DNA from: Patescibacteria group bacterium
GTDB taxonomy: Bacteria > Patescibacteriota > Gracilibacteria > UBA4473
NCBI GenBank assembly: GCA_965660445.1
Contig: CBFIAK010000001.1
Location: forward strand, 736,001 to 800,000
Direction of reading: 5' to 3'
DNA length: 64,000 nt
Position 1 is the stretch's first letter; every line of letters starts with the position of its first letter. Both the position numbers and the translations under genes were made by a program. The notes under the pieces are model-generated. The model was not told the origin of the DNA. It saw only the letters and a program-made list of their open reading frames with translations, and searched no databases. Of this stretch, positions 31,760-51,834 are shown piece by piece.

Positions 31760-32950
31760 TTATTGTAATGATATATCCGTACCTCCTAAAGGAAAGAATC
31801 CTATTTTTTTCTCCGTATTGGCATCAATCCAATCCGGACGATACAATACTAACCTTGAGAACGCATTTGGTGTTGGTGTTGAACCAAGATCGGCTTTCAG
31901 TACAAACGGACGAGAACTCGACGTAATAGTAATAGACCGATTGAATGGTATATAAATAATATCCCCTTCAACACTTATTTTTTCAGACACTGTTTCGTCA
32001 TTTGACTCAAGCCATAGATTCTTAAACACATCTGAACCAGCTGTTCCCATAAGACGGAAATACATCCCCCCAAGACGAACCGTGCCCGACTGAGATCGGA
32101 ATGTAATGGCGTGAACTGGTACATTTGTTGTATTTTTAGAAAGAGTTACTCGACGAGCCAAAGATGATGTTTTTTCCACATACAATGTTCCTGCATTTGG
32201 ACTCAGTGGCATTGTTTGTGGCATGGTGTCTGTATACTCATACAGAGGGGCATCTGATGTTGTTGGTGTAACGTCTCCTCTATCCGTTTGATTTGATTCT
32301 GTAGTCGGATCAAATGTACTGGGAAGTTGAGTATCAGAAAGTGATGTTTGAGAAGATTCCTCATCTGATGACAGTTTTCCTGTATATTTCATACACCGAT
32401 AAATCTGATCTGTAATTTCAATTCGCGAAGGAGTATGCGATTTATCAATATTTTCGAGGGTTACCCCATAAGGCAACAGTTGCGCATCAGACAAAGCTCT
32501 AAAATACGGCATACTCCAATCGTCACCTTCTTGCACATCTCCAACAGGAATACTAAACGCAAGCGTTAATATCTTTGCTACTTCTGCACGATTGATGGTT
32601 CCCCCTGGTTGAAAAGTACCATCTGGATATCCTGAAACCCATCCATACTGACGAGCTGTTTCTATAAAATCAAAAAACCAATCTTCTTTTTGGATATCAG
32701 GAAATCGAGATTGTAATGGCAAATACCGAGTGACGTTTGTAGCGGTCACAACAAGTTTTGAAAATTCCGCTCTATTCATTGGTCGATCTGGAGCAAACGA
32801 ACCGTCATCATTCCCAGATATAATACCTTCATTGTAAAGAGTTTCTACAGCCGGTAATGCCCATTGTTCAATAGTATCAGCATCTGAAAAAGAAGCGTGT
32901 GCAGGAATCGTAGTTCCAATAGCAACAAGAAACAAAAAGAATGAGTACAT
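31760..32950 (-). CDS. Secreted SLH-domain protein
   Basis: Signal peptide (PAHA), SLH repeats (G..DG.F.P…NRAE), S/T/D linker, beta-rich C-domain. Confidence 0.85.
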   Translation of the reverse strand: MYSFFLFLVAIGTTIPAHASFSDADTIEQWALPAVETLYNEGIISGNDDGSFAPDRPMNRAEFSKLVVTATNVTRYLPLQSRFPDIQKEDWFFDFIETARQYGWVSGYPDGTFQPGGTINRAEVAKILTLAFSIPVGDVQEGDDWSMPYFRALSDAQLLPYGVTLENIDKSHTPSRIEITDQIYRCMKYTGKLSSDEESSQTSLSDTQLPSTFDPTTESNQTDRGDVTPTTSDAPLYEYTDTMPQTMPLSPNAGTLYVEKTSSLARRVTLSKNTTNVPVHAITFRSQSGTVRLGGMYFRLMGTAGSDVFKNLWLESNDETVSEKISVEGDIIYIPFNRSITITSSSRPFVLKADLGSTPTPNAFSRLVLYRPDWIDANTEKKIGFFPLGGTDISLQ

Positions 32951-39912: not shown

Positions 39913-41436
39913 ATGAAAAAACACATTATAACAGCTTTCTTCCTTACTCTTCCCCTCACACTCTTTGCACAAGAAGACACCACCCCACTCCCACAAACAA
40001 CCATAGGTCCTGTTTTCGAGGAAGAACGTATTATTCCTGAAATGAAGATTCCTTCCCATATTGCTTTGCATAATGAAGCTTCTTTTGATGCCTCATCATC
40101 ACGGCTTATGTCACCTTCTTCTGGGCAAGCAAATTATGCATGGGATTTTGGTGATGATTCCCCTCTTGCTTGGGGAAGTAATGTAAGACACACCTATACA
40201 AAACCCGGACTCTACACAGTAAAACTCAAGGTATCACAAGGACGCCGAAGTGAATCACTCGCACAAGAAATTATTGTTTATGATCGCATAGGAACACTAA
40301 TCACTGACTCAACCGATCCCACTGAAATACTATACCAAGCTGGTACAAACGGAATTCATTTACGAACCATTACGTATGAATCAGGGTCTGGGTTTTCTTC
40401 AGAAGAGGATTTTATTCGACGGTTACAAGAGAACGTAACGAGTCTTTCTGAATCAGAAATTATTATATTCTATACAAGCTCCACAAGGGCCCTTCAAAAT
40501 GTCGGACAATGGTGGCAAAAGTTGTCGGAAGAAAATCGATTTAATATTCGTGAAAAATTATGGGTTCAGATACTAGCAGAAGGTTCTCTCACCAATTCCC
40601 GAAAATCATTACAACCTGTTTTTTCTATATTAAAACCCAACTTTATACTTTTAACCCGTCCGAGTAGTTTAAATATTTTATTTAAAAATGTTGACCCAAG
40701 CCAAGCATTAAAAATAATAGAACAGCGACGAATTGAAAATGTTATTGTTGACGAAAGATCTGCCACTTCAAAAATACTCATTCTTTCTAACCTGACGAGT
40801 TATTTTGTGACCAATGGAATTTCACAAAACGTGATTTACCTCCTTTTAGCCGTTCCAATGATTGCTTTTATCATTGCGTTTTTCCGTCAATTTGTTGGTA
40901 TTTCTACTTTTGGGGTCTATACCCCTTTAATGCTCAGCCTTAGTTTTTTGATTCTCGGGTTTTGGTTTGGACTCTTTGTTTTTTTATCAGTTATGATTGT
41001 GAGTTATATCATTCGTCTTATCTTTGAAAAAGTAGATCTTCTCTATATTCCCAAAGTAAGTCTCTTATTTAGTGTTTTATCGATTTTGTTTTTTTTCGTT
41101 CTTGGACTGGCTATTTATTTCGAAACACCCATTAACCTCACGCTGACAATATTCCCAATGCTTATGATGGTATCACTTTCAGAGAAATTTATTTCTACCC
41201 AATCAAGCAGTGGAATGTTTCGTGCATTTTTAGCGACAGCCGAAACTATTGTTGTGTCTCTCATCGGATATATTTTTGTTGTATGGGAATGGGTACAAAG
41301 TAGTATTATTTCTATTCCAGAACTTATTTTGATTCCTCTTATCGGAACTATCTGGCTTGGAACATTTACAGGGCTTCGAATAAGTGAATACATAAAATTT
41401 CGAACACTTTTTCAAGAAGACAACCAAGAAGAATAA
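39913..41436 (+). CDS. PKD-domain plus 7TM (7TM_transglut-like) membrane protein
   Basis: Signal peptide; YAWDFGD…HTY..PG.YTV.L.V (PKD); LL..P…FRQ.VG..TFGVYTP…FPM…E…G.FTGLR.SEY..FR. Confidence 0.85.
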   Translation: MKKHIITAFFLTLPLTLFAQEDTTPLPQTTIGPVFEEERIIPEMKIPSHIALHNEASFDASSSRLMSPSSGQANYAWDFGDDSPLAWGSNVRHTYTKPGLYTVKLKVSQGRRSESLAQEIIVYDRIGTLITDSTDPTEILYQAGTNGIHLRTITYESGSGFSSEEDFIRRLQENVTSLSESEIIIFYTSSTRALQNVGQWWQKLSEENRFNIREKLWVQILAEGSLTNSRKSLQPVFSILKPNFILLTRPSSLNILFKNVDPSQALKIIEQRRIENVIVDERSATSKILILSNLTSYFVTNGISQNVIYLLLAVPMIAFIIAFFRQFVGISTFGVYTPLMLSLSFLILGFWFGLFVFLSVMIVSYIIRLIFEKVDLLYIPKVSLLFSVLSILFFFVLGLAIYFETPINLTLTIFPMLMMVSLSEKFISTQSSSGMFRAFLATAETIVVSLIGYIFVVWEWVQSSIISIPELILIPLIGTIWLGTFTGLRISEYIKFRTLFQEDNQEE

Positions 41437-41451
41437 ACTGATTCCCCTACC

Positions 41452-43782
41452 ATGATTCCTTTTTTGACTCATACGACAGATATTTTAGGACTTAATGCCC
41501 GAAATTTACTGTATATCCAAAAATATAACTCAAGGGCTCATAAAAAATTAGCAAATGATAAAATATATACGAAAAATTTTTTAGAGTCCCGTAATATAAA
41601 AGTTGCAAAAACATACCATGTTATAAAAAGCTATAAGGAACTCACACCTGCATTTTTCAAAAACCTCCCTGATACTTTTGTTTTAAAACCCAATAAAGGA
41701 TGGGGGGGGAACGGAATTCTTATTATAGAAAAACGAAAAGAAGACCGTTGGATTACTTCATCAGGAAAAACACTCAACCTTGAACGACTTTTTCAACACT
41801 GTGTAGCCATATTAGATGGGAAATACTCACTTTCTGGTATTGATGATGTTATTATCTTCGAAGAAAAACTCGAAAAACATCCATCGCTGCGATATTTCAA
41901 TGACATAGGACTTCCCGATATTCGATTGATTGTCTTTAATATGGTTCCTATTATGGCTATGATTCGTATACCCACCGAAGATTCTGATGGAAAAGCAAAT
42001 ATGGAAATCGGGGGGATTGGTGTTGGAATAGATATTGGAACGGGTATCACTACTCGCGCAGCACAATATGTAAAAAGCATATCAAGAATGCCAAACGGAA
42101 ACTCTGTTTCTGGTTTTCATGTTCCTCATTGGAATGAACTGTTACTTAATGGTGCGAAAATACAAAATACAACAGGCATTGGGTATATTGGTGTTGATTT
42201 TGTACTCACGAAAACCGGATTAAAAGTATTAGAAATAAACACGCTCCCCGGACTAAAAATACAAGTCGCCAATAAAATACCTTTAAAAAGAAGACTCGAA
42301 AAAGTTCATGACTTAAAAATAAAAACCCCCGAAGAAGGCGTTGAAATAGCGAAAACTCTATTTACACAAAAAGTTACAGCTGAAAAAACAGATTCAATAA
42401 AAATAAAAGAAGTAATTGGTGTAACAGAATCTGTGATTGTAAATATGGAAAAACCACTTCCTCTTATTGCTCATATTGATACATTGGCAGAGAAAAACAC
42501 GATTCGATCAACACTCTATTCAGGAGGAGTTCTTGATATAACTATTGGGAAAAAAAGGTTAAAATTACCAGTCGAAAAATCTGACTCACAAGAACACGAT
42601 ATTATTCTCGCGAGCAAGTTTTTACACGATTTTTATATAGACCCCAACAAGAAACCAGCACACCCCATTGGCAACCCATTGACAGCACAACTGGATGAAA
42701 AGATGATGATAAAACTTGATGAAAAAGTGTTTGAAATGGAACGCAATATTAATTTACTTCGTCATGTAAACCCTCAAAACTTAGAAGAACAACGAGAACT
42801 TTTTTTGCGTAATCCTGAATTTTCACCAAAGTTTGTTTACAAACCCGTGACCGATGATTTGTCTTATTTTGAAAAAGAACTCAAAAAAATACCAAAAATA
42901 AACCATCCTTTGTTTTGTTTATTTGAGGCAAAAGTACAAGAATTACATTCAAAAATTCATCTTATTCAAAACATTGGAAGTCCCCTCTTTCAAGACGCCA
43001 GTGAAAAAATGTTTGGTCGTGTATCAACAAAAACGTATAAAGAAGCGATTCAATTCTGTAAAAAGAATCCCCTCATTGAGGACCCAAGTAAAGAACTGGA
43101 TATAAAAAGTTCCCGAAAAATAATTACAGAGTTTCTCAACTTATATAATCTTGGACACTGGAACATAAAAATTATTAATGAAAGTGTGGCTGATATTCAA
43201 GTAACAAAAGGTGGCAATATTTTGTTACGAGACGGAGCCGTGTTTAAAGAAAACAGACTCAAAGCGCTTTTAGTACACGAAGTAGGCACTCATATTTTTC
43301 GGTTCGAGAATGGACGAAATCAGAGATTTCGCATATTTGAACGTGGAACAGCTGGGTATTTACGAACAGAAGAAGGACTTGCTATTTGGAACCAAAACCA
43401 ACTAGGACTCCAATTAGGCACAAAATATCTTTCTCCCGCACATCAAGTAATTGCTATCTACAAAGGACAATCAATGTCTTTCTTAGACCTCTTTCATTCC
43501 TTAAAAAAAGAGTACCAGTTTGATGACAAAAGAGCATGGAAAATGTGTTTACGATCAAAAAGAGGGCTTACTGATACTTCACAAAAACAATCATTCACAA
43601 AAGATGCGGTGTATTTTCAAGGAAACCAAGATATAGAAGCGTATATATCAAAAGGGAAAAAAATTGAAGACCTCTATATTGGAAAAATATCTATCGACGA
43701 TATCCCACTACTCAAAACATATCCTGATATAAAAAAACCAAAACTACTCCTTTCTCCAAAGAAAAATGCGCTATTACTCTAG
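41452..43782 (+). CDS. RimK-like/sugar-transfer-associated ATP-grasp ligase fused to a degenerate retropepsin domain and a DUF1704 (MATCAP-like) metallopeptidase
   Basis: LGLNARN, DK..TK, KPN.G.GG.GI, PDIR, KAN…GG.GVGID, GVD, LEIN..PGL.IQ.AN; IG..E…AHIDTLA…IDP; HEVGTH, TEEGLA, R.KRG, FTKD.VY. Confidence 0.85.
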   Translation: MIPFLTHTTDILGLNARNLLYIQKYNSRAHKKLANDKIYTKNFLESRNIKVAKTYHVIKSYKELTPAFFKNLPDTFVLKPNKGWGGNGILIIEKRKEDRWITSSGKTLNLERLFQHCVAILDGKYSLSGIDDVIIFEEKLEKHPSLRYFNDIGLPDIRLIVFNMVPIMAMIRIPTEDSDGKANMEIGGIGVGIDIGTGITTRAAQYVKSISRMPNGNSVSGFHVPHWNELLLNGAKIQNTTGIGYIGVDFVLTKTGLKVLEINTLPGLKIQVANKIPLKRRLEKVHDLKIKTPEEGVEIAKTLFTQKVTAEKTDSIKIKEVIGVTESVIVNMEKPLPLIAHIDTLAEKNTIRSTLYSGGVLDITIGKKRLKLPVEKSDSQEHDIILASKFLHDFYIDPNKKPAHPIGNPLTAQLDEKMMIKLDEKVFEMERNINLLRHVNPQNLEEQRELFLRNPEFSPKFVYKPVTDDLSYFEKELKKIPKINHPLFCLFEAKVQELHSKIHLIQNIGSPLFQDASEKMFGRVSTKTYKEAIQFCKKNPLIEDPSKELDIKSSRKIITEFLNLYNLGHWNIKIINESVADIQVTKGGNILLRDGAVFKENRLKALLVHEVGTHIFRFENGRNQRFRIFERGTAGYLRTEEGLAIWNQNQLGLQLGTKYLSPAHQVIAIYKGQSMSFLDLFHSLKKEYQFDDKRAWKMCLRSKRGLTDTSQKQSFTKDAVYFQGNQDIEAYISKGKKIEDLYIGKISIDDIPLLKTYPDIKKPKLLLSPKKNALLL

Positions 43783-43798
43783 AGTAATAGCGCATATG

Positions 43799-49932: not shown

Positions 49933-51834
49933 TTATTTTTTTTGTTTTTGAAACGGCAACCGAAACACAAACTTTTTGTAATACCAATACCAAATCAGAG
50001 TCCCTACAAAAAGAATACTCACGCTCCAAATCCACACCCATTGGTTCATAAACCATCGATTATCTTCTTCATCACAGGCATCACCAATACCATCACTATC
50101 CATATCTTCTTGCCGAGGGTTTGAGACATCTACACAATTATCAAGACCATTCGCAATACCGTCTTGATCATTATCGTCACATACATCCCCTACTCCATCA
50201 TCATTGAAATCTGCTTGGTTTGGGTTTGGAATATGAATACAGTTATCATCTATACCTTGTATACCATCACCGTCACTATCTTCACAAACATCCCCCACTC
50301 CGTTGTAATTAAAATCATTCTGATTCGGATTGAAAACTTGAATACAGTTATCACACACATCTCCTACTCCATCACTATCAGTATCTCGTTGGTCAGCATT
50401 CGGCACATAAAAACAATTATCAGTAAAATCCAAAACACCATCCCGATCGAAATCGTGTTGCCGAGCATGATTTTCTCGGGCTTCACACGCATCACCTCTA
50501 TTGGTATAATTTTGATCTTTTTGGTCAGGGTTGTAGATTTCACAGTTATCACACACGTCCCCTATCCCATCAAGATCTATATCTCGTTGGTCAGCATTCG
50601 ATACATATGGACAATTATCAAGAACATCTGGTACTCCATCTTCATCAAGATCAGAGTCACACGCATCCCCGGCCCCGTTATTATTCACATCTCGTTGATC
50701 TGGATTGGCTGTATACACGCAATTATCACGAAGTCCGATGATACCATCTTCATCTGAATCTTCACACAAATCCCCTATTTCGTTTCCGTCTTTATCTTCT
50801 TGATACGGATTATAAATATCTCGGCAATTATCAATACTATCACCTATTCCATCTCCATCGGTATCAATATCAAAAAAATGTCGTTCATTTGGGTTATAAT
50901 CACAAGCATCTCCAAGTCCATCGCTATCTACATCTTCTTGACGAGGATTCGGCACAAATGGACAATTATCTTTTTGGTTTAAAACTCCGTCCTTATCTAG
51001 ATCTGATATAAAATGAGGATTTTCTTCAAGCACAGGATTATAAATAGGCGTTGCAATACTCACTCTATAAGGAGGAGGATTCGTGGTATTTCGATTATGA
51101 ATCGCTGGAAAAAGTGTTTGAGGTTCACAAGTATAGTTTTGATATATATGCACACCTGTTAAATCGTTCAGGCGAAGAAGATACGTATCTTTTTCTTGTT
51201 CCCATACTCGGATATCATGAACCATGAGACGATCCTGATCTTCTTCAAATGCGAAAGAAGTGATTGGTTCGAACTGAATAAGAAGATACCGAAACGCATG
51301 CTGTTCAGGATTTTTCACTTGCTGAAAATTCTGATTGTCACTTGATACGAAATAATACGGCACATAATTACCTGAAAACTGAAGTCGAATAAACGTTTTT
51401 TGTGGATCAAGAATTCGTTTCATATCGAGTAATAATCGTGCCGGATATTCTCGCATAAACTGAAAAGAAAGAGCTGTTTGATAATTATTATCTTGGAGTG
51501 TTGCTGTTTGTAAAGAAGTGGTATTTCCTTGACTCCAAAGAGCTTGATAATTCACATTTGTTTGGATTCCTTTTTCTAAAAGACTGAGGGCTTGAATCGT
51601 ATTTTGATGAACGAAGAAAAGGTCTGGGGAGGAATGAATATTTACTTTCACGGTTCCGTATTCTGTATTTTCAAAAAATGAATACTTCGAAAAACAAGCT
51701 TCATTCGCAACATCGTCCCATGTTTGAGCGTATACAATAGGAAAAAGAGCGCATAAAACAAAGCTTCCCCAGATAAATAACCGGAGTGTATACGCTTGAA
51801 AAAAGAGTTTATATGTTTGTGTTTGTCTTGTCAT
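49933..51834 (-). CDS. Thrombospondin type 3 repeat surface protein with C-terminal TM anchor
   Basis: Many D.D.DG…DNC…N..Q.D.D.DG.GD.C repeats; signal peptide; C-terminal TM and basic tail. Confidence 0.9.
   Translation of the reverse strand: MTRQTQTYKLFFQAYTLRLFIWGSFVLCALFPIVYAQTWDDVANEACFSKYSFFENTEYGTVKVNIHSSPDLFFVHQNTIQALSLLEKGIQTNVNYQALWSQGNTTSLQTATLQDNNYQTALSFQFMREYPARLLLDMKRILDPQKTFIRLQFSGNYVPYYFVSSDNQNFQQVKNPEQHAFRYLLIQFEPITSFAFEEDQDRLMVHDIRVWEQEKDTYLLRLNDLTGVHIYQNYTCEPQTLFPAIHNRNTTNPPPYRVSIATPIYNPVLEENPHFISDLDKDGVLNQKDNCPFVPNPRQEDVDSDGLGDACDYNPNERHFFDIDTDGDGIGDSIDNCRDIYNPYQEDKDGNEIGDLCEDSDEDGIIGLRDNCVYTANPDQRDVNNNGAGDACDSDLDEDGVPDVLDNCPYVSNADQRDIDLDGIGDVCDNCEIYNPDQKDQNYTNRGDACEARENHARQHDFDRDGVLDFTDNCFYVPNADQRDTDSDGVGDVCDNCIQVFNPNQNDFNYNGVGDVCEDSDGDGIQGIDDNCIHIPNPNQADFNDDGVGDVCDDNDQDGIANGLDNCVDVSNPRQEDMDSDGIGDACDEEDNRWFMNQWVWIWSVSILFVGTLIWYWYYKKFVFRLPFQKQKK

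Follow-up and report, generated by a model that had tools for sequence, protein, structure and literature searches.

A bacterial fusion of an ATP-grasp ligase, a degenerate retropepsin and a MATCAP-type carboxypeptidase encoded beside a membrane protein with a Glu-Glu tail

The stretch of DNA analysed here (the window, 64,000 nucleotides in all) comes from a Patescibacteria group bacterium and carries a gene for a protein in which an ATP-grasp amino-acid ligase domain, a degenerate retropepsin-fold domain and a MATCAP/DUF1704-type metallocarboxypeptidase domain are joined in one chain. The gene starts 15 nt past the stop of a gene for a seven-transmembrane (7TM) protein with a PKD domain (Table 1). 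An earlier reading made from the letters alone (hereafter the sequence-only reading) had recognised the three domains, and its positions for the AHIDTLA, HEVGTH, EEGLA and FTKD motifs are all right; it missed the PKD-7TM partner, the partner's terminal Glu-Glu (-EE) and the ancestry of the fusion in a split operon with an intact D-T-G motif. The host was also rightly described as having a minimal genome, since its assembly amounts to 991 kb in 5 contigs with a completeness rating of 100%.

Table 1. Features of the fusion gene, its upstream partner and the adjoining repeat (positions within the window)
Feature	Position	Strand	Remarks
PKD-7TM partner gene	39913..41436	+	507 aa; signal peptide, PKD, ~170 aa without family, seven TM helices
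Acidic C-terminal tail ...FQEDNQEE of 7TM protein	41410..41433	+	candidate substrate or docking tail
Three-domain fusion open reading frame	41452..43782	+	table 11, 776 aa, TAG stop
ATP-grasp amino-acid ligase domain, RloC/RimK-like	41452..42372	+	aa 1-307; PF14397, TIGR02291, fold
Degenerate retropepsin-fold domain, all beta	42385..42669	+	aa 312-406; fold and transitive profile match
AHIDTLA, former D-T-G-A active-site loop, Gly lost	42469..42489	+	aa 340-346
MATCAP/DUF1704-type metallocarboxypeptidase domain	42718..43779	+	aa 423-776; PF08014, profile, fold
HEVGTH, HExxxH metal/catalytic motif	43276..43293	+	aa 609-614
EEGLA, putative third metal ligand E641	43369..43383	+	aa 640 onward
Inverted repeat, 13-bp stem	43766..43795		overlaps the TAG stop of the fusion

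Three domains in one chain

The AlphaFold2 model of the fusion and the residue counts in this section rest on 115 full-length homologues, 5 of the 120 listed matches (512-661 amino acids, aa) having been left out as short. The model reached a mean predicted local distance difference test score (pLDDT) of 90.4 and a predicted template-modelling score (pTM) of 0.78, with pLDDT below 50 limited to aa 1-5 and the linker at 308-317. Hydropathy gave no transmembrane (TM) segment anywhere in the 776 aa, and no signal peptide was found either. Both PF14397 and PF08014 are present in 119 of the 120 homologues among the matches listed, and the closest of these carry the source labels Candidatus Gracilibacteria or Peregrinibacteria.

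The N-terminal part had been read as a RimK-like ATP-grasp enzyme, and profile and fold agree. The Pfam family ATPgrasp_ST (PF14397) covers aa 17-286 at E 1.3e-59 (202.1 bits against a gathering cut-off of 31.4), along profile positions 2-277 of 278, while the NCBIfam model TIGR02291, "alpha-L-glutamate ligase-like", covers aa 9-307 at E 2e-74 (250.4 bits, under the equivalog cut-off of 314.2). RimK itself gives a local Pfam match at aa 236-271, and with the NCBIfam model of the RimK family the fusion reaches 38.8 bits, the cut-off being 143.4. The Foldseek neighbours of the domain are ArgX (3vpb_A, E 3.2e-8, root-mean-square deviation (rmsd) 3.7 over 269 columns), RimK (5zct_C, E 3.7e-8, and 4iwx) and CphA1, a cyanophycin synthetase (7wae); the ATP-grasp enzymes nearest by fold extend peptide or protein carboxylates. 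Seven residues (K79, D132, E137, R158, D249, E261 and N263) are invariant in all 115 homologues, and four of them, K79, D249, E261 and N263, are presumably the nucleotide- and Mg-binding Lys and Asp/Glu-x-Asn, going by their roles in RimK. The TTL family (PF03133) was not found among Pfam matches at E<=1, nor was a TTL chain among the Foldseek matches listed, and a phmmer search of the ligase domain against PDB sequences returned chance-level ribosomal S2 matches only.

The C-terminal half, described earlier as a DUF1704 domain with an intact HExxxH, indeed folds as MATCAP. The Pfam MATCAP family (PF08014) matches aa 456-756 at E 1.7e-43 (149.4 bits against a gathering cut-off of 27), and NCBIfam TIGR02421, "QEGLA", matches aa 423-756 at E 5.3e-48 (164.1 bits, under its equivalog cut-off of 338.65). 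Human MATCAP (7z5g, 7z6s) fills Foldseek ranks 1-5 with E values of 9.2e-13 to 4.1e-12 and TMt of 0.61-0.62, the top match being 7z5g_C (E 9.2e-13, TMt 0.61); the identity to human MATCAP is about 20%. A family profile run against PDB sequences likewise recovered human MATCAP (7z5g) at E 1.8e-26. The HExxxH, the EEGLA and the KRG..DT....F.KD..Y block all align with the human enzyme; HEVGTH falls on its HEIGTH, where the E281Q chain 7z6s_C has HQIGTH, and the FTKD motif of the fusion lies at aa 715. H609, E610 and H614 are kept in 114/115 homologues, and the EEG of the second motif (102/115) alternates with QEG (12/115), so that its second E is present in 114/115. The EEG motif is named as the third ligand in the TMCP paper (PMC10499314). 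With catalytic residues conserved and folds intact, the ligase and MATCAP domains both look active.

The middle domain had been described as a degenerate RimB-type retropepsin whose D-T-G reads D-T-L, and the D-T-L is real. Modelled alone from 29 sequences, the domain reaches a pLDDT of 90.3, and its best structural match is the DUF785 protein Lpg0085 (2pma_B; VIA Z 11.6, rmsd 2.2 over 87 aa). RloA2 of Pseudomonas aeruginosa (9g59_B) follows at Z 11.3, then foamy-virus protease at Z 8.6, with Ddi1 and the retroviral proteases lower; Foldseek gives the same order (2pma_B E 4e-5, RloA 9g58_B E 1.1e-4). The sequence-only reading had expected a profile match for each domain, and this came true for ATPgrasp_ST and DUF1704; the retropepsin family is absent from the Pfam results and is seen by fold. 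At E<=10, PF05618 matched neither the window's middle domain nor any of the 29 aligned members, and the same threshold yielded no retropepsin when the middle-domain profile was run against PDB sequences. The NCBIfam model RloA3 was reached by 3/29 aligned members (best E 0.015), the window's own copy giving no match, and direct hhalign to one Legionella RloA-like sequence was weak (5%, E 0.0077). The homology of the middle domain to the PF05618 retropepsins follows instead from a transitive link. In a relative from another class of the phylum (locus L045), the corresponding, C-terminal domain scores 34.8 bits with PF05618, above the cut-off of 27, and its loop is D-T-G-A-G; hhalign joins that domain to the middle-domain profile at 97.5% and E 8e-12, with D343 on the catalytic Asp of that D-T-G-A-G.

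D-[TS]-G occurs in 0/115 homologues of the fusion, D343 itself being kept in 80/115, and split and other-class relatives read DTGA or DTGE at this loop. As the D-T-G signature is gone throughout the lineage, the middle domain very probably lacks protease activity. Shorter homologues were also looked for; those found were stand-alone or truncated PF08014 proteins, with no retropepsin among them standing alone, and no other PF05618 gene was found in the host genome at E<=0.01.

The remnant had also been proposed as a dimerisation module. A homodimer model of the middle domain gave an interface score (ipSAE) of 0.58 (runs 0.58, 0.54 and 0.59) against 0.00 for the best of 3 controls, the ipSAE mark being one reached by 20/30 proteins solved as one-chain pairs and by 1/23 solved as single chains. 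At least 73% of contacts are common to the runs, with partner pLDDT of at least 85, and the predicted interface takes in aa 319-324, 341-345 (the AHIDTLA loop) and 388-399, which we take to be the classical retropepsin dimer geometry. The model thus favours dimerisation, but since retropepsin dimers have been solved, the result may only echo those structures and is likeness more than proof.

The membrane partner, its tail and the spread of the pair

The partner encoded upstream matches Pfam 7TM_transglut (PF14402) at aa 294-499 (E 2.4e-26) and PKD_4 (E 2.1e-13), and the NCBIfam RloB model NF052267 matches at aa 304-501 only (E 9.2e-11, 41 bits against a cut-off of 900). Its TM segments, by hydropathy, are confined to aa 302-488, and no Pfam family was found for aa 121-295. 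The protein ends ...FRTLFQEDNQEE, and this tail should be cytoplasmic, judging from an N-terminus outside, seven helices and the positive-inside rule applied to the sequence.

The acidic end is conserved within the class. E is the last residue of the 7TM protein in 48/50 class genomes and EE the last two in 37/50, and a further 7 class genomes end in EE without exception (7/7); among 940 crude open reading frames (ORFs) of the host genome, by comparison, 93 end in E and 7 in EE. Position -3 is free to vary (T, S, E, Q, N and others). In one genome (G044, locus L078) the partner ends ...DDEEV, an encoded extra residue past EE that recalls the alpha-tubulin genes encoding a terminal Tyr. Other acidic-tail substrates were sought in S6 and FtsZ of the host and were rejected, as their C-termini do not end that way.

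Tail and retropepsin loop were compared in 16 extra systems in which the loop could be aligned. Where D-T-G is kept, the tail does not end in EE in 7 systems and does in 1 (G220); where D-T-G is lost, the tail ends in EE in 7 and does not in 1 (G083, ETGS). A strict rule that a dead retropepsin goes with an EE tail is therefore broken by G220 and G083. The association is best taken as a pattern and not as a statistical test, because the systems are kin and probably represent two subtypes only.

A match to the fusion was found in 52/61 related genomes, including 34/36 of the host's own family, and in several of these it lies on megabase-size contigs, so that the assembly artefact or chimera against which the sequence-only reading had cautioned is rejected. 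The fusion match is strong in 51 genomes, and in 38 of these a hand comparison of coordinates puts the 7TM gene immediately upstream in the same orientation; the 13 remaining include G017, where the pair is broken at contig ends, and G046, where the copy is 4 kb away. In the 9 genomes without the fusion, the 7TM query matches the PKD region only, which suggests that fusion and 7TM gene were lost together. Across the phylum, PF08014 was found in 59/301 sampled genomes.

Relatives in other classes show where the fusion comes from. In the split operons L040 and L045, separate genes encode the 7TM protein, an ATP-grasp-retropepsin protein (DTGA) and MATCAP, and the operons continue with an N-formylglutamate-amidohydrolase-type (FGase) gene and/or a second ATP-grasp gene; at L046 a fused form still carries DTGE. 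Since other-class relatives have separate genes or D-T-G, the window's fusion is a partly decayed version of an older operon. Further afield, Legionella has an RloA-like gene, an inactive-transglutaminase-7TM gene and a TIGR02291 ligase, the gene context of this and the other proteobacteria having been taken from plasmid records. This three-gene rlo arrangement is described in PMC11957051.

MATCAP genes adjoin other ATP-grasp ligases as well. One genome of the same class (G048) has a second, separate operon with a stand-alone MATCAP (L034:5211-10049, minus strand), in the order Mur-ligase-like (549 aa), ATP-grasp_4 (476 aa), MATCAP (366 aa) and FGase (249 aa). In G109, a RimK-like gene, a glycosyltransferase gene and a MATCAP gene stand together; a Shinella plasmid (L048:5451-9195) has an FGase, a 617-aa MATCAP protein and a glutathione-synthetase-like ATP-grasp; and a Vibrio plasmid (L047:6110-8101) has an FGase-MATCAP fusion of 663 aa. 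These proteobacterial "QEGLA" proteins from Vibrio and Shinella are larger than the MATCAP domain. Because MATCAP adjoins other ATP-grasp ligases repeatedly, the coupling of ligase and MATCAP is a recurrent bacterial theme, and the window holds its most compact form.

A separate arrangement occurs in family f42 of the phylum, where a stand-alone MATCAP gene (384-388 aa) follows mreB by 12-33 nt on the same strand in all three loci read (L038:5616-7806, L039:4491-6686 and L044:5346-7559), with a RimK-like ATP-grasp nearby in two of the three. PF08014 is present in 14/14 sampled f42 genomes. The MreB tail was considered as an acidic substrate in these loci and rejected, the tails not being acidic. 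The MreB sequence from L039, the one query used, gave no blastp match at E<=1e-10 among the 940 crude host ORFs.

Several other features of the window and the host may be recorded here. The hairpin formed by the inverted repeat in Table 1 lies about 250 nt past the convergent argS gene, and scores as a terminator for the argS side because its T-run is on the minus strand only. The window also encodes an S-layer-homology-domain protein (31760-32950, minus strand, E 5.4e-29) and a protein of 633 aa in which the thrombospondin type 3 repeat occurs eight times (49933-51834, minus strand, E 4.6e-59); a protein similar to the latter adjoins the second MATCAP operon of G048. An alternative genetic code for the host was rejected, since TGA ends 6 of the 52 long ORFs and table 11 gives coding over about 90% of the window. 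In two class relatives, G057 and G046, the fusion contains 44 and 19 TGA codons in frame, as lineages that recode TGA would be expected to show. One DNA run, which may be the source of the stretch, is listed as containing it, and no RNA run is.

A candidate add-and-trim cycle and its rivals

From these parts we infer, as the sequence-only reading did, a reversible C-terminal tagging cycle, and we think it somewhat probable that the system, tied to the envelope, uses ATP in a cycle that extends and trims the C-terminus of a peptide, the 7TM tail being the candidate substrate. The cytoplasmic three-domain enzyme would work with the membrane protein encoded just upstream. Its ligase would activate a peptide C-terminal carboxylate with ATP and add one or more amino acids, much like RimK, LysX/ArgX and cyanophycin synthetase, and its MATCAP domain would take off C-terminal residues singly. 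The dead retropepsin domain would join two chains and may grip an acidic peptide. All of this would take place at the inner face of the membrane, where the conserved cytoplasmic -EE end of the PKD-7TM, RloB-like protein would be the most likely acceptor tail.

The choice of that tail as candidate acceptor follows from the enzymes themselves, since Glu tails are what RimK and TTL extend and what MATCAP-type enzymes trim. On tubulin, TTL extends a Glu C-terminus. RimK extends RpsF with Glu at its C-terminus, RimB takes these residues off again (PMC11957051), and TMCP1/2 are carboxypeptidases sensitive to a penultimate Glu, the title of the paper crediting the family with deglutamylation (PMC10499314). 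In Pseudomonas, loss of RloB or RloC suppresses the defects of a triple RloA mutant, RloA cleaves polyglutamate in vitro, and the Rlo phenotypes are osmotic and also concern biofilm and cell shape (all PMC11957051). These genetics fit a pathway in which what the ligase and the 7TM protein make has to be cut back by a peptidase. One might guess, on family resemblance, that the added residue is Glu and, from the Pseudomonas rlo operon, that the physiological role is an envelope or osmotic one.

A narrower version of the cycle, in which the 7TM protein itself is the substrate, its tail being lengthened by the ATP-grasp domain, read by the dead retropepsin dimer and shortened by MATCAP, is possible but rather doubtful. 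Were it true, a membrane protein of a bacterium would be subject to a tail cycle resembling the tubulin code, its writer, reader and eraser sharing one chain, and the pairing of ligase and MATCAP would be older than eukaryotes.

Several observations speak against the cycle or against the tail as its target. The ligase and peptidase activities of the fusion family are predicted from sequence and fold, and both NCBIfam equivalog cut-offs, TIGR02291 and TIGR02421, are missed. A single chain with two opposed activities would waste ATP if it were not regulated, and the FGase-linked MATCAP operons give a hint that, for some of the bacterial MATCAP relatives, the targets are small peptides containing Glu and not proteins. 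Among the 50 class genomes, one partner ends ..FKK (G038) and that of G044 ends in V. In other classes of the phylum, 8/10 partners have basic or small ends (among them KHDKSA, KHGKSS, KKHRA, ARKSH, KTRK and KKKGA) although the enzymes are present, so that the 7TM tail is no universal substrate of the family; the two proteobacterial RloB-like tails, from Legionella and Aeromonas, are not acidic either. The tail counts are also not independent events, because the orthologues are kin, and the conserved acidic end could serve in docking or regulation and not be a substrate.

An unlikely rival is biosynthesis followed by export. The ligase would make a free or carrier-bound oligo- or poly-amino acid, such as poly-Glu, which the 7TM protein exports, and MATCAP would set its length, prime it or recycle it, with no protein tagged at all. 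In P. aeruginosa, cytosolic RloC and membrane RloB act upstream of secreted, polyglutamate-cleaving RloA, which would fit a product crossing the membrane, and RimK makes free poly-alpha-Glu as well (both PMC11957051); membrane vesicles are overproduced by an RloB-like mutant of Shewanella (PMC12096838). The nearest ATP-grasp folds include cyanophycin synthetase, and the Pfam family PF14397 is named "sugar-transfer associated". Both peptidase-type domains of the window are, however, cytoplasmic and fused to the ligase, unlike secreted RloA, and the conserved -EE end of the 7TM protein would be left unexplained. We also know of no transport function for 7TM_transglut proteins.

Sequential maturation is improbable. 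Here the carboxypeptidase would trim the C-terminus of a precursor and the ligase would then add the final residue or residues once and irreversibly. It is common for fused enzymes to carry out consecutive reactions, the order of the domains would allow it, and the ..DDEEV partner of G044 has an encoded residue after EE that would need removal. Yet the 37/50 partners that end in EE already would leave nothing to trim, and the precedents are opposed pairs: TTL and MATCAP work against each other. So do RimK and RimB (PMC11957051).

Metabolism of small molecules or short peptides, such as glutathione-like or gamma-glutamyl compounds, with co-expression as the only link to the 7TM protein, has very little probability in our view. 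MATCAP relatives do occur fused or adjacent to FGase-type enzymes and glutathione-synthetase-like ATP-grasps in Vibrio, Shinella and some Patescibacteria, but no FGase gene lies at the window's locus, peptide or protein carboxylates are the substrates of the closest ATP-grasp structures, and the pairing and co-loss with the 7TM gene would stay unexplained. RimK-like modification of ribosomal protein S6 is hardly credible, for although the ligase shares the fold and weak Pfam and NCBIfam matches with RimK, the host S6 ends ...EDSSLDL with no acidic EE tail and the fusion is paired with a membrane-protein gene, not with ribosomal genes.

To our knowledge, erasing the tubulin code is the only role described for MATCAP/TMCP enzymes, and no substrate is known for their many bacterial relatives. 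Full-text searches found no literature linking DUF1704/MATCAP to ATP-grasp enzymes in bacteria, and Iyer et al. (2009), to whom earlier proposals of peptide tagging are attributed, may treat related contexts. The parts already bear automatic annotations, and descriptions of the Rlo and Rim systems exist; the lead offered by the -EE tail is new here. An eraser is joined here to a ligase in bacteria whose genomes measure about 1 Mb; the fusion was found in most related genomes that were searched, and its neighbour is a protein with a conserved -EE end. The question of what bacterial MATCAP and RloC-type ligases act upon becomes a direct experiment at the level of peptides, and the two genes offer a simple system for studying an Rlo-type envelope pathway, which in Pseudomonas affects osmotic tolerance, biofilm and antibiotic resistance (PMC11957051).

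Comparison with known systems

The RloABC system of Pseudomonas and other Gammaproteobacteria comprises the secreted retropepsin RloA, the inactive-transglutaminase-7TM protein RloB and the ATP-grasp enzyme RloC. The window resembles it in that its 7TM region matches the NCBIfam RloB model, its middle domain has the RloA fold and its ligase matches TIGR02291, a model that a Legionella gene beside an RloB-like gene passes at 436.1 bits. The Legionella ligase region is 36.9% identical to the window ligase by tblastn, and the gene order, 7TM and then ligase, is the same. The differences are also clear. The window's retropepsin is fused to the ligase, cytoplasmic and without D-T-G, whereas RloA is secreted and active; the outer part of its 7TM partner consists of PKD and a region without a family, with no transglutaminase detected, unlike that of RloB; a MATCAP domain has been added; and both the RloB and the TIGR02291 cut-offs are missed. 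The EE end of the window's 7TM protein, too, is not shared by the RloB-like tails of Legionella and Aeromonas.

The "flavohemoglobin expression-modulating QEGLA motif" proteins of TIGR02421 share the PF08014 domain with the fusion, and in Shinella they also have an ATP-grasp neighbour. Unlike the fusion, they occur with an FGase-type amidohydrolase and a glutathione-synthetase-like ATP-grasp, and without a 7TM protein or a retropepsin.

RimK-RimB pairs an ATP-grasp ligase with a retropepsin that binds and regulates RimK and removes Glu, the substrate being a protein C-terminus (PMC11957051). The window likewise pairs an ATP-grasp ligase with a retropepsin-fold domain, and RimK is among the nearest folds. 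It departs from RimK-RimB in that the host S6 lacks an acidic tail, the retropepsin is dead and the active-type peptidase is a metallocarboxypeptidase.

The remaining parallel is the tubulin tail cycle of TTL/TTLL with MATCAP1/TMCP1 and TMCP2. As in that cycle, an ATP-grasp enzyme is found together with an HExxxH gluzincin of MATCAP fold and a candidate -EE tail. Unlike that cycle, the window has a ligase that is not TTL and no tubulin, its activities would reside in one chain, and the candidate substrate is a membrane protein.

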